Assembly (NCBI GenBank): GCA_043800755.1
Contig: JAZDMQ010000027.1
Span: forward strand, 1 to 31,195
Source of the DNA: a bacterium
GTDB taxonomy: Bacteria > Methylomirabilota > Methylomirabilia > CAVQYV01
Direction of reading: 5' to 3'
DNA: 31,195 nucleotides
Shown here: positions 25,381 through 31,195 of the stretch, piece by piece
Layout of the letters: the number at the start of each line of letters is the position of its first letter
Numbering within the stretch: the first letter of the stretch is position 1
The notes under the pieces: generated by a model
What the model saw: the letters and a program-made list of their open reading frames with translations, nothing else
Told to the model about the DNA's origin: nothing
Database searches by the model: none
Translations under genes and position numbers: made by a program

Positions 25381-27135
25381 ATGTTGCACGAGCTTCGTAT
25401 CCGGGACTTCGCCCTCATCCAAGAGGTCTCCGTGGAATTCCTCCCCGGCTTCAATGTCCTGACCGGGGAGACCGGAGCGGGTAAATCGATCATCATTGAT
25501 GCCCTTGCCTTTCTCCTGGGTGCTCGGGCCCAGAATGAACAGATCCGCTCCGGAGCCGAAGAAGCCGTCGTCGAGGGCAGCTTCGACCCTCTGCCATTCC
25601 CCGAGTTCCGAGATCTCATGGAGGGCGCAGGCCTTCATCAAGATCCAGATCAGTTCTTGCTCCTCAAGCGCCATCTGCTGAACGATGGGAAGAACAAGGC
25701 CTACATTAATGGGAGCCTCGTTTCCTTGTCGGTGCTCCGGGAACTGGGGGATTACCTGGTTGACATCCAGGGCCAGCATCAGAGCCAGTCTCTGCTGGAG
25801 TCCAGGAGGCAACAGGGATTGCTGGACGCCTACGCAGGACATCAGGAGAAGGTGAAGCAGCTGCAGCATTGCTATCAGCGCGTACAGTGGATAAAAAAGG
25901 AGCTGGCCGAGTTGAGCCAGGATCAGGGCGATGTGGGAAAGAGAGAGGAATTACTCGAATTCCAAAGGGCAGAGATCGAGGCCGTCCAATTGAAGCCTGA
26001 GGAGGAGGAAGAGATCGCCCGGGAGGCATCGATTCTGTCCAATGCGGAGCGGTTGTTTGGTTGGTGTGAGGCGACCTGGGGCAAGATCTGCGATGAGCCA
26101 GGGGCCGCCCTCGATTCTATCTCCTCGGCGATCTCCTCTCTGAAGGAGGGGAAGGGGGTTGATCCCCGGCTGGCCACTCCGCTGGAGGCCCTGCAATCGG
26201 CCCGGATTTATCTCGAGGAGGCGGCATCTTTCCTGAAAAGCTATCAAGGCAAGATCGATTTCGATTCCGGACGCCTGGAGGAGCTGGAGGTGCGGCTCTC
26301 GATCATTGCAAAGCTCAAACGAAAATACGGGGGGACCGTCTCGGAGATCCTAAATTATCACCGGCAACTCCTGCGAGAATTGGAGGATATTCGAGGGCTG
26401 GCAGAAAGGCAGGCCCGGATCTCTTCAGAGCGGGAGGGGCTATTGCAGGAAATGGGGCGCCTTGCCCTGGAGATCTCCCGAGCCAGAAGGGAGGCGGGGA
26501 TCTCCATGGGGGAAAAGGTCCAGCAGGAGCTGCGACAGCTCGGCATGCCGGGGGCCATCTTTTTGGTGGAGCTCTCGGATCTGGAGGATCCAGCCGGCGA
26601 GCTGGTGGTGGAAGATAAGAGGTACCCGCCTTCCCCGCGAGGGATAGATGGGGTTGATTATCTATTTTCCTCCAATCCCGGGGAAGAGGTAAAGGCGTTA
26701 TCCAAGATCATCTCTGGCGGTGAACTCTCTCGAGTCGTCTTGGCCTTGAAGACGACCCTGGCAGCCCTTGATGAAATTCAGACCTTGGTCCTGGATGAGG
26801 TCGACACGGGCATCAGTGGAAGCATGGCGGAGGTGGTGGGCCAGAAGCTGAGGACCTTAGGCAGCCAGCGGCAGGTCCTGTGCATCACTCATCTTCCTCA
26901 CATCGCTACCTTCGGGGATGCCCATTTTAGCGTGATCAAGCAACAACAGGGCGACCGAACCGTGGCGCGAGTGCAGAGGTTGAGGGAGACGGAGAGGGTG
27001 AACGAGATCGGACGGATGTTGGGCGACAAGGGGATCTCACAAACACCCCTGCGGCACGCGAGGGAGATCCTCTCTCAAGCCCGGGAATGGAAACGGGGAG
27101 AAGATGCCACTCTCACGACCCCTAAGAGGATATAG
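25381..27135 (+). CDS. recN: DNA repair protein RecN
   Basis: TGETGAGKS, IQGQH, coiled coil, SGGELSR, DEVDTGISG, QVLCITHLP. Confidence 0.97.
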   Translation: MLHELRIRDFALIQEVSVEFLPGFNVLTGETGAGKSIIIDALAFLLGARAQNEQIRSGAEEAVVEGSFDPLPFPEFRDLMEGAGLHQDPDQFLLLKRHLLNDGKNKAYINGSLVSLSVLRELGDYLVDIQGQHQSQSLLESRRQQGLLDAYAGHQEKVKQLQHCYQRVQWIKKELAELSQDQGDVGKREELLEFQRAEIEAVQLKPEEEEEIAREASILSNAERLFGWCEATWGKICDEPGAALDSISSAISSLKEGKGVDPRLATPLEALQSARIYLEEAASFLKSYQGKIDFDSGRLEELEVRLSIIAKLKRKYGGTVSEILNYHRQLLRELEDIRGLAERQARISSEREGLLQEMGRLALEISRARREAGISMGEKVQQELRQLGMPGAIFLVELSDLEDPAGELVVEDKRYPPSPRGIDGVDYLFSSNPGEEVKALSKIISGGELSRVVLALKTTLAALDEIQTLVLDEVDTGISGSMAEVVGQKLRTLGSQRQVLCITHLPHIATFGDAHFSVIKQQQGDRTVARVQRLRETERVNEIGRMLGDKGISQTPLRHAREILSQAREWKRGEDATLTTPKRI

Positions 27136-30133: not shown

Positions 30134-30346
30134 ATCCGGCCAGGAGAAGTGGCAAGCCAACCGTCGGTTTTCTGGAGAGTCAATCCCATTCTTAGTTGAA
30201 ATTCCTCAGCGACCCCTGTCATGGCCTTATGCAACTTGATCTCCCCTTGCGGTCCTTTCCCCTCGGATCTCCCCCTGCAGGGCAGCCCGCAGGGTGGGAA
30301 GATGCCGGTATCCCTTGACCCGGCGAAGCCTGGGTTCGATGTCCAG

Positions 30347-30373
30347 CCTGCCTGTGCGTGGCACGCAGACAGG
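30347..30373 (-). repeat. 27-bp palindromic micro-insertion (element E1)
   Basis: Minus strand CCTGTC-TGCGTG-C-CACGCA-CAGGCAGG; adds PVCVPRTGR between VASAL and LDIEPRL. Confidence 0.85.
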
Positions 30374-30725
30374 CAGGGCAGAGGCCACCCATCTCTGCTT
30401 CTGATCGCTGTTTCTCCAGCGGTCCACCGGATTCGTTCGTTCCCCCACTTGGGACATCAGGGATTCCAGGCAGTGGGTGGTCTTCAGGCTGAGTCCCAGT
30501 TGAGGAAATACCCCCAACCGGTGCAAGGTGAGGGTCTCCTCCATCCCCTCGTCCAGACTGGCGACCGCGGAGACATTCACCAGGCGCAGCTCCTGCCGGC
30601 AGCGATGGAGCGCAGCCTGAGCTTCGGTGTAGGTAGGCTTCTCGTACGCGGCCTGCAGCCTCCTCCGCCAGAGGGCCTGCTGGGACTTGGGGAGATAGCT
30701 CACCACATTCTCCCGTTTATGCCAC

Positions 30726-30782
30726 TCTGCCTGTGCGTTGCACCTGTCTGCCGTGCTTACGGCACAGGCAGGCGCAGACAGG
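30726..30782. repeat. Nested palindromic micro-insertions: a 27-bp outer element split by a 30-bp inner element (30743-30772)
   Basis: TCTGCCTGTGCGTTGCA[CCTGTC-TGCCGT-GCTT-ACGGCA-CAGGCAGG]CGCAGACAGG. The rejoined outer element differs from E1 at 2 of 27 positions. Confidence 0.85.
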
Positions 30783-30968
30783 AGGGCGATGATCATCTCA
30801 TCCTCGGCGAAGGTTTTCCCATCCAGGATCAGGGCCACGAAGTCATAGGAGTCCAATCGGCGTTCGCAGAGCTCGCGGAGCTTCCGGGCGCTGGCCCGGA
30901 TGAAGCGGCGGGAGAGGGAGGAGGCACTCAGGCCGAAGGCAGCGGGGATCGCCTCCGCACACTCCCCA

Positions 30969-30986
30969 CCTGTCTGCGCAGGCAGG
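30969..30986 (+). repeat. 18-bp palindromic micro-insertion (element E2)
   Basis: CCTGTCTGCGCAGGCAGG; removing it restores ...RSY-GECAEAIP. Confidence 0.8.
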
Positions 30987-31195
30987 TAGGATCGGCAGCT
31001 CAGACCCCGGAGGATCTTCCGGAGGATTCCCGGATCGGCCTGATGGGGCTTCTGCAGGCCCTGGTAGGTCTGGAGGGGAACTTCCCGGTTGTGGGCCCGA
31101 TCCCACAGCCTCCTGTAGATGACGGCCAGCTTCTGATCGGCCAGGTAGACCGAGCCTCTTTGCTGACTCCAGCGGACCACTCCCGGGAGACCTCC

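Follow-up and report, generated by a model that had tools for sequence, protein, structure and literature searches.

The window analysed here comprises 31,195 nucleotides of a genome contig from a bacterium of the Methylomirabilota. Its last kilobase is occupied by an open reading frame on the minus strand (30227–31195), whose 5′ end is cut off by the contig end and which encodes a truncated and internally deleted transposase of the IS256/Mutator family. The assignment is based on the list of open reading frames, on a DNA alignment and on a full-length paralog of 437 aa (P0001) located on contig C134 of the same genome. This paralog matched PF00872 with an E-value of 2.8e-23 and 82.8 bits (cut-off 21), and the protein P0002 reached 195.7 bits against the same cut-off, placing it in the IS256/Mutator family.

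Within this gene, four related palindromic elements were found. E1 (27 nt, 30347–30373) carries its top strand on the minus strand of the window, where it has the sequence CCTGTCTGCGTGCCACGCACAGGCAGG, and it is read in frame as PVCVPRTGR. The second site is a composite. Its 27-nt outer element, also with the top strand on the minus strand, is split into a right-hand part of 17 nt (30726–30742), which has the 3′ end CAGGCAGA and abuts the site QRC|QWHK, and a left-hand part of 10 nt (30773–30782), which on the minus strand reads CCTGTCTGCG and is joined to ...ATCATCGCCCT, the junction of a 210-bp deletion. Between both parts lies inner E2 (30 nt, 30743–30772; top strand on the plus strand), which is nested between G10 and T11 of its host element and runs opposite to it. 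E3 (30969–30986; top strand on the plus strand) is a minimal element of 18 nt consisting of the outer stem and CG, and its minus-strand reading is LPAQTG. In common orientation, all four elements start with CCTGTCTG and finish with CAGGCAG(G/A). An earlier sequence-only reading of the window had reported four related palindromes of the type CCTGTCTG...CAGGCAGG at these positions, with lengths that are multiples of three, in both orientations and without clear target duplication, and direct reading of the DNA bears this out. The pattern CCTGYCTG-N(0-30)-CAGRCAGG had three matches in the window, while 0.00 were expected and none of 100 shuffled sequences reached three.

The elements share a conserved outer stem of 8 bp, in which a T.G wobble occurs on only one of the two strands. 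They also have an asymmetry of 2 nt, and their inner hairpins vary, with both sides changing together; the sizes within the family range from 18 to 36 nt. Among 32 unique 30-mers, the inner pairs were standard in 78–82% of the cells compared to 16–54% when the partner was shifted, and several pair types occurred at each inner pair. Folding of the single sequences with DNA parameters gave z-scores of −0.7 to −3.2, only moderately better than shuffled sequences, so that the support for the hairpin comes from the family comparison and not from the folding energy. Since top and bottom strand fold about equally well with DNA parameters and the energies by themselves are unremarkable, the reading of the element as a single strand is based on the conserved wobble and the asymmetry.

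Exact empty sites were found for all four segments, none of them with a target duplication. In the paralog on C134, E1 is missing as an exact gap of 27 nt and inner E2 is missing as well, while E3 and an uninterrupted outer E2 (25749–25775) are present; thereby C134 provides an exact empty copy of the host element of inner E2. An uninterrupted 27-nt copy of outer E2 at the matching site was also found in protein P0008 from another metagenome. In a DNA alignment of eight metagenome homologs (L163–L168, L197 and L241), E1 was missing in all eight (empty site TCTGCCCT|GCTGGAC), and the same was true for outer E2 (TGCC|AGTGG). E3 was empty in seven of the eight, of which six read TCCTA|TG and L163 had the same uninterrupted sequence; L164 alone was filled, so that among the copies aligned at the DNA level E3 is restricted to the window, C134 and L164. 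A protein alignment of 13 homologs and the two copies of this genome gave E1 in the window only, E3 in the two copies of this genome only, and outer E2 in P0001 and P0008 only. Most of the 120 listed protein homologs have 422–425 aa. The closest ones have 422 aa compared to 437 aa of the paralog, and the excess of 15 aa in P0001 over the 422-aa homologs equals E3 plus outer E2. In the metagenome loci of this transposase family, the element was present in one of 80 (L164).

Contigs from other public sequencing runs were also aligned, the comparison being limited to contigs; each run contained at most 0.29 of the words of the window, and two RNA runs with 0.05–0.06 were left aside. E1 was filled in contigs of X2 and X4 and empty in X3, again as a gap of 27 letters. 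The depth over bins with an element rose to 570–2390 in X1, X3 and X4 compared to roughly 5–300 in the flanking bins; in the small run X2, it was up to 19–94 only. At the level of sequence comparison, these data confirm that the four segments are true insertions of a multi-copy family which occurred exactly and without target duplication. The earlier proposal of a multi-copy inserted family is thus upheld by intact homologs without the segments, by 11 other places with the motif in the genome, by nesting, and by contigs with filled and empty E1. The related proposal that excision restores the transposase holds for E1 (and E3), where a homologous protein results, but not for E2, since 210 bp are also missing beside it.

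At different sites of the same transposase family, we observed a second tiny family of 24 nt with a 2-nt asymmetry (core CGTTCGACTGAGGCTCACGAACG). It is present at L241:1071–1093 and L163:708–730 as well as in the proteins P0005, P0009, P0037 and P0040, and depending on the orientation it is read as VRLRLTNV or TFVSLSRT. Its exact core occurred in 50 genome-contig stretches, all of them from bins, assigned to Chloroflexota, Cyanobacteria, Dadabacteria, Deltaproteobacteria and NC10.

The missing 210 bp correspond to 70 codons of the core (GITLSG...ALIQRC) that are present in the C134 paralog, and the deletion in the window copy is in frame and located directly beside E2. At its junction, the composite E2 meets ...ATCATCGCCCT directly with its left end, while its right end, CAGGCAGA|GTGG, is the same as at the QRC|QWHK site in C134. 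The protein P0008 carries the nested composite (LSAPACAVSTADRCNAQ) at AL|GITLSG and a second copy at QRC|QWHK. Because of this arrangement, which is available at the protein level only, recombination is the simplest reading: the 210 bp were probably lost by recombination between two element copies in the same orientation, with removal of the intervening stretch. Whatever the route of the deletion, the transposase gene of the window is an inactive remnant. The deletion at E2 and the spread of the element across phylum labels (see below) go beyond what had been noticed from the window before.

In the whole genome (2.43 Mb, 166 contigs), ten exact matches were detected, every one with a length divisible by three. 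Five more copies were interrupted, ended with A or had one mismatch, giving a total of 15 with lengths of 18, 27, 30 or 33 nt. Their hosts include two different PF00872 transposases (C58/C134 and C93) and a Type ISP restriction-modification gene (C45), and at least nine of the 15 copies lie within transposase or restriction-modification genes. For the other six, a mobile host gene was not identified, and the hosts of the copies on C19, C50 and C156 have no assigned protein family. On C5 (3053–3326), three copies were found within 275 bp in and 3′ of a GGACT (AIG2-like) gene; the GGACT match spans only profile positions 1–53 of 120, and this gene may be degraded. A fuzzy motif with one mismatch allowed per end was rejected as too noisy (121 matches compared to 33 in the reversed genome). 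Also, two candidate 18-nt insertions at C94:10619–10636 and C43:2705–2722 were rejected, as they are native coding motifs, namely the TCLRRQV motif of dCMP deaminase and the C-terminal peptide of FtsZ, which look alike by chance at one mismatch per end.

Within the class, the element was matched in 10 of 41 genomes, including six of eight in one related genus (4–17 matches each), and in none of 20 genomes of another family of the class. A hand count of 61 copies in relatives, leaving out three likely chance matches in G001 and G021, gave 48 with lengths divisible by three, the rest having 20 nt (eleven copies), 25 nt (one) and 29 nt (one). In 52 of the 61, the outer stem was of the asymmetric T/G form.

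The pattern CCTGTCTGCGTGC-N(1-6)-ACGCACAGGCAGG was found in at least 119 stretches of a species-representative genome collection, labelled with about 20 phyla and one archaeon; none of these stretches has the label of a cultured strain. Some contigs are short and may be mis-binned, including the archaeal one of 3.8 kb. Contigs of 100 kb to 6.3 Mb back the presence of the element at least in Latescibacterota, Spirochaetaceae, Brocadia and Kuenenia, Gallionellaceae, Mariprofundaceae, Opitutales, Actinomycetes and Nitrospira. The sequence of the element was near-identical throughout, also in hosts with a local G+C content of 29–45%. Furthermore, 21 viral stretches carry it, and in a set of viral contigs related to each other, copies are located inside open reading frames matching terminase and capsid families. 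None of 72,556 plasmid records and 50,697 records of isolate phages contained a full copy.

Four long-read chromosomes had 61–101 matches each (strands summed, some overlapping) compared to 0–1 for control patterns. The copies were evenly split between the strands and formed many sub-families of 21–36 nt. A crude test for open reading frames placed 103 of 122 copies outside long ones. The bias to mobile DNA suggested by the sequence-only reading applies only to the genome studied here; elsewhere most copies are intergenic. Rfam gave six matches, four to miRNA and two to snoRNA-type families, all of them small RNAs of eukaryotes or archaea with E-values of 0.65–8.7, the best one reaching 19.4 bits compared to a gathering score of 60. 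A literature search with four 13-mers of the element returned only unrelated eukaryotic contexts, and a word search gave nothing specific. In the stretches L294 (1477–1882) and L295 (1508–1912) of genome G042, a copy of the 28-nt sub-family lies within a larger repeat, either dispersed or in tandem, whose period is about 378 bp. A solo-LTR-like origin, considered for pairs of direct copies in Latescibacterota, was rejected: the genes between two direct copies are ordinary (GNAT, TPP enzyme, WD40, M78 peptidase and FAA hydrolase), and the pair at about 378 bp is inside a larger unrelated repeat.

The lengths in the main sub-family were 27 nt (61 copies), 30 nt (48), 29 nt (10), 28 nt (2) and 31 nt (1). 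Of the copies outside long open reading frames, 92 of 103 had lengths divisible by three, therefore this bias belongs to the family and does not result from selection site by site. The suspected intrinsic preference for such lengths is thereby supported, but it is not absolute, as copies of 20, 25, 28 and 29 nt exist.

Flanking sequences of 142 unique copies had a C at position +1 in 117 cases and a G or A at −1 in 118. Pairing between the flanks at positions −2/+2 to −10/+10 was 0.20–0.29 and thus near the chance value of 0.25. As the first base of the element is C and its last is G, R^C is read at each of its two junctions as well as at the target. A flank stem of at least 6 bp was present in 13 of 140 copies compared to 1.8% in shuffled pairings. 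By our own reading of the matches listed, there were about 14 nested cases among the 122 copies elsewhere, recurring at fixed points of the host element; the nesting point of inner E2 was also used in L041, L085, L126 and L093. In L025, L036, L087 and L110, copies were seen in the loop of a different palindrome, which is widespread and of the type GTCATTCC...GGAATGAC. With respect to orientation, a hand count in G044, in which the origin was not located, gave 10 plus and 10 minus copies in one half and 23 plus and 21 minus copies in the other, without a two-halves pattern. Orientation relative to the ends of neighbouring genes was not biased (17 against 26). Altogether, the data show that the elements enter exactly and without target duplication, prefer R^C, and hit the loops of palindromes, including their own, above chance.

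The sequence-only reading had suggested looking for a RAYT/Y1, IS110 or reverse-transcriptase gene which is flanked by the motif and co-distributed with it. No such gene was found: Y1/HUH, reverse transcriptase, IS110 and TnpB were each missing from some high-copy genomes, and none was flanked by the motif. PF01797 (Y1) was detected in 19 of the 41 class genomes, including genomes free of the element, and was missing from one with six copies. The six Y1 genes of the genome studied here have their own inverted ends GGGGTCA..., not the element, and these ends fit the consensus GGGG[AT][CG]A[CG] given for the TIRYT subclass in PMC6006769. Four of the Y1 (HUH) genes are full length (C53:27–1052, C110:3252–4181, C128:9523–10383 and C134:26786–27673), encode proteins of about 290–340 aa starting with MARPLR, and have the inverted ends GGGGTCA(N)(N)TCTT; one of them follows the C134 transposase at a distance of 540 bp downstream. 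In two relatives, the element did not flank the canonical Y1 genes, and relatives of one Y1 protein, used as a single query, were absent from the 119 listed loci of up to 8 kb. Among five element-carrying genomes, four of them with high copy numbers, full-length PF01797 was present only in G041 and G043, the latter with just seven matches, and G045 (80 matches) contained only a Y1 fragment of 44 aa. RVT_1 was not found in G041 (101 matches), IS110 was found in neither G041 nor G042, and the TnpB domain was found in none of the five. Also, common neighbour genes were not apparent across the 119 listed loci, in which the largest protein cluster comprised six loci; the genes shared by the viral loci were those for terminase and capsid. 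In G044, the stretch L299 (3978–7682) encodes a DUF1156/D12-methyltransferase-like protein of 1235 aa with an in-frame 27-nt element and, about 100 residues downstream of it, a partial Y1_Tnp match (profile positions 40–121).

As the probable explanation, we favor miniature non-autonomous REP-like palindromic insertion elements of 18–36 nt, which would move as single strands by means of an enzyme acting in trans. According to this model, the element would fold as a single strand, and the enzyme supplied in trans would nick and rejoin it at the R^C of either end. Translation through the element is tolerated because the common forms have lengths divisible by three and are free of stop codons. 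The occurrence of one and the same sequence in phage contigs and under many phylum labels makes horizontal travel of the element or its mover probable. Since the copies in the genome studied here are mainly in transposase and restriction-modification genes, some of them may have arrived already inserted. A wider interpretation, which we regard as possible but hold tentatively, is that the elements represent a broad and so far undescribed class of selfish DNA hairpins of about 18–36 nt which cross phyla, insert at R^C and in hairpin loops without a RAYT, and have been selected in their lineage for lengths divisible by three and freedom from stop codons so as to suit coding sequence. They would then be moved either by a new kind of enzyme, which phages may carry, or by a general activity of host replication or repair.

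It is unlikely that the elements lack mobility of their own in this genome, having been inserted in other hosts, brought in together with insertion sequences and defence genes by horizontal transfer, and then spread among IS copies by recombination or gene conversion only. Such passengers are suggested by the concentration of at least nine of the 15 copies in two transposase families and a Type ISP restriction-modification gene, by the same nested composite in P0008 from another metagenome, by the distribution of E3, which is present in the window, C134 and L164 yet missing in the closest relatives L163 and L165, and by the filled form of E1 in the X2 and X4 runs. This would account for the source of the copies but not for their first insertion; the element is found at well over 100 unrelated sites elsewhere, and six copies here have no identified mobile host gene.

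Copying from an RNA or another template by a reverse transcriptase or repair polymerase, followed by pasting into the genome, would make the identity across phyla a consequence of a common template, which we consider improbable. The near-identical sequences under about 20 phylum labels, including those at a local G+C content of 29–45%, are in line with this, as are the T.G wobble, which would be a stable G.U pair in RNA, and the failure to find a transposase. On the other hand, RVT_1 is missing from G041 despite its 101 matches, no candidate template locus appeared, and the many sub-families with different inner hairpins would require many templates. That the palindromes formed de novo at each site, without any mobile element, through slippage during replication or a switch of template at short inverted repeats, is very improbable: quasi-palindrome template switching is an established mutational process and some copies do lie inside other palindromes, but it cannot yield an identical set of 26 specified bases at over 140 sites unrelated to each other, nor exact gains of 18, 27 and 30 nt at sites where nothing in the empty form matches. 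That the segments are artefacts of metagenome assembly or library preparation, to which the missing cultured-strain labels among the 119 listed stretches and the lack of full copies in the plasmid and isolate phage records could point, is hardly credible, because copies are found both in multi-megabase records labelled as chromosomes and in the short-read assemblies of numerous studies, because they differ from each other in loop and length, can be nested, leave reading frames open and occur as filled and empty forms, and because no sequencing adapter is known to match the element.

The preferred REP-like insertion elements can be compared with several known systems. IS200/IS605 ends and their derivatives without a gene, the PATEs, have no target duplication, carry irregular hairpins that mark the strand, and insert beside a short target motif, and in these three respects the elements resemble them. 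IS200/IS605 have two hairpins at least 100 nt apart, a target of 4–5 nt and a replication-strand bias, whereas the element is a single hairpin with a preference for the 2-nt R^C and, in G044 with its origin not located, showed no visible replichore bias. From MITEs, which derive from an IS and have terminal inverted repeats, the element differs by its lack of a target-site duplication at the four exact empty sites and by its size of 18–36 nt compared to 70–300 bp. The small dispersed repeats (SDRs) of heterocyst-forming cyanobacteria, reportedly described by Elhai et al. in 2008, are said to be mobile repeats of 21–27 nt which can form hairpins, occur nested in other repeats and have no known enzyme. 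In these features they are like the element; unlike it, they are reportedly limited to a single group of cyanobacteria, and their sequences differ.

The closest likeness is to REPs and RPEs. In Di Nocera et al. 2013 (PMC3733652), REPs of 20–40 bp inside genes are already described, as are CGTC-type REPs without a dedicated transposase. REPs and the element are both imperfect palindromes of 20–40 bp, multi-copy, mostly between genes and sometimes intragenic in frame, and both form sub-families with different stems, with the CGTC-type REPs also lacking a dedicated transposase (PMC3733652). With 18–36 nt, 61–101 matches in each of four chromosomes and 103 of 122 copies outside long open reading frames, the element has the size and copy number of a REP. 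Unlike REPs, for which the same paper gives an unpaired GTAG/CGTC end tag (PMC3733652), the element ends with CCTG...CAGG and its flanks have only R at −1 and C at +1. It also flanks no Y1 gene, occurs under about 20 phylum labels compared to one species or genus for a REP, and is often nested in its own copies. The missing GTAG/CGTC tag, the missing flanking RAYT, the spread across phyla and the frequent self-nesting are the reasons for which we set it apart from REPs. RPEs are similar in being palindromic repeats in frame inside open reading frames that are probably still coding; RPE-4 and RPE-6 are equated there with short CGTC REPs and RPE-1 is called longer (PMC3733652). RPEs are reported from Rickettsia, whereas the elements described here have 18–36 nt and occur under many phylum labels. 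By these comparisons, the elements would belong with the REP/RPE kind, with the REP tag and the flanking RAYT missing and the mechanism as proposed above.

If this interpretation is true, the smallest class of mobile DNA in bacteria reaches down to 18–30 bases, and one such sequence is common to uncultured bacteria of about 20 phylum labels and to their phages. No REP family is known to span such phyla and phages, and no enzyme co-distributed with the element was found among the Y1, reverse-transcriptase, IS110 and TnpB genes searched. They add peptide loops to proteins, promote deletions, here in a transposase, and break assemblies. For annotation, their recognition avoids that odd intragenic insertions are called sequencing errors and that spurious small open reading frames made by the element are taken as real genes.
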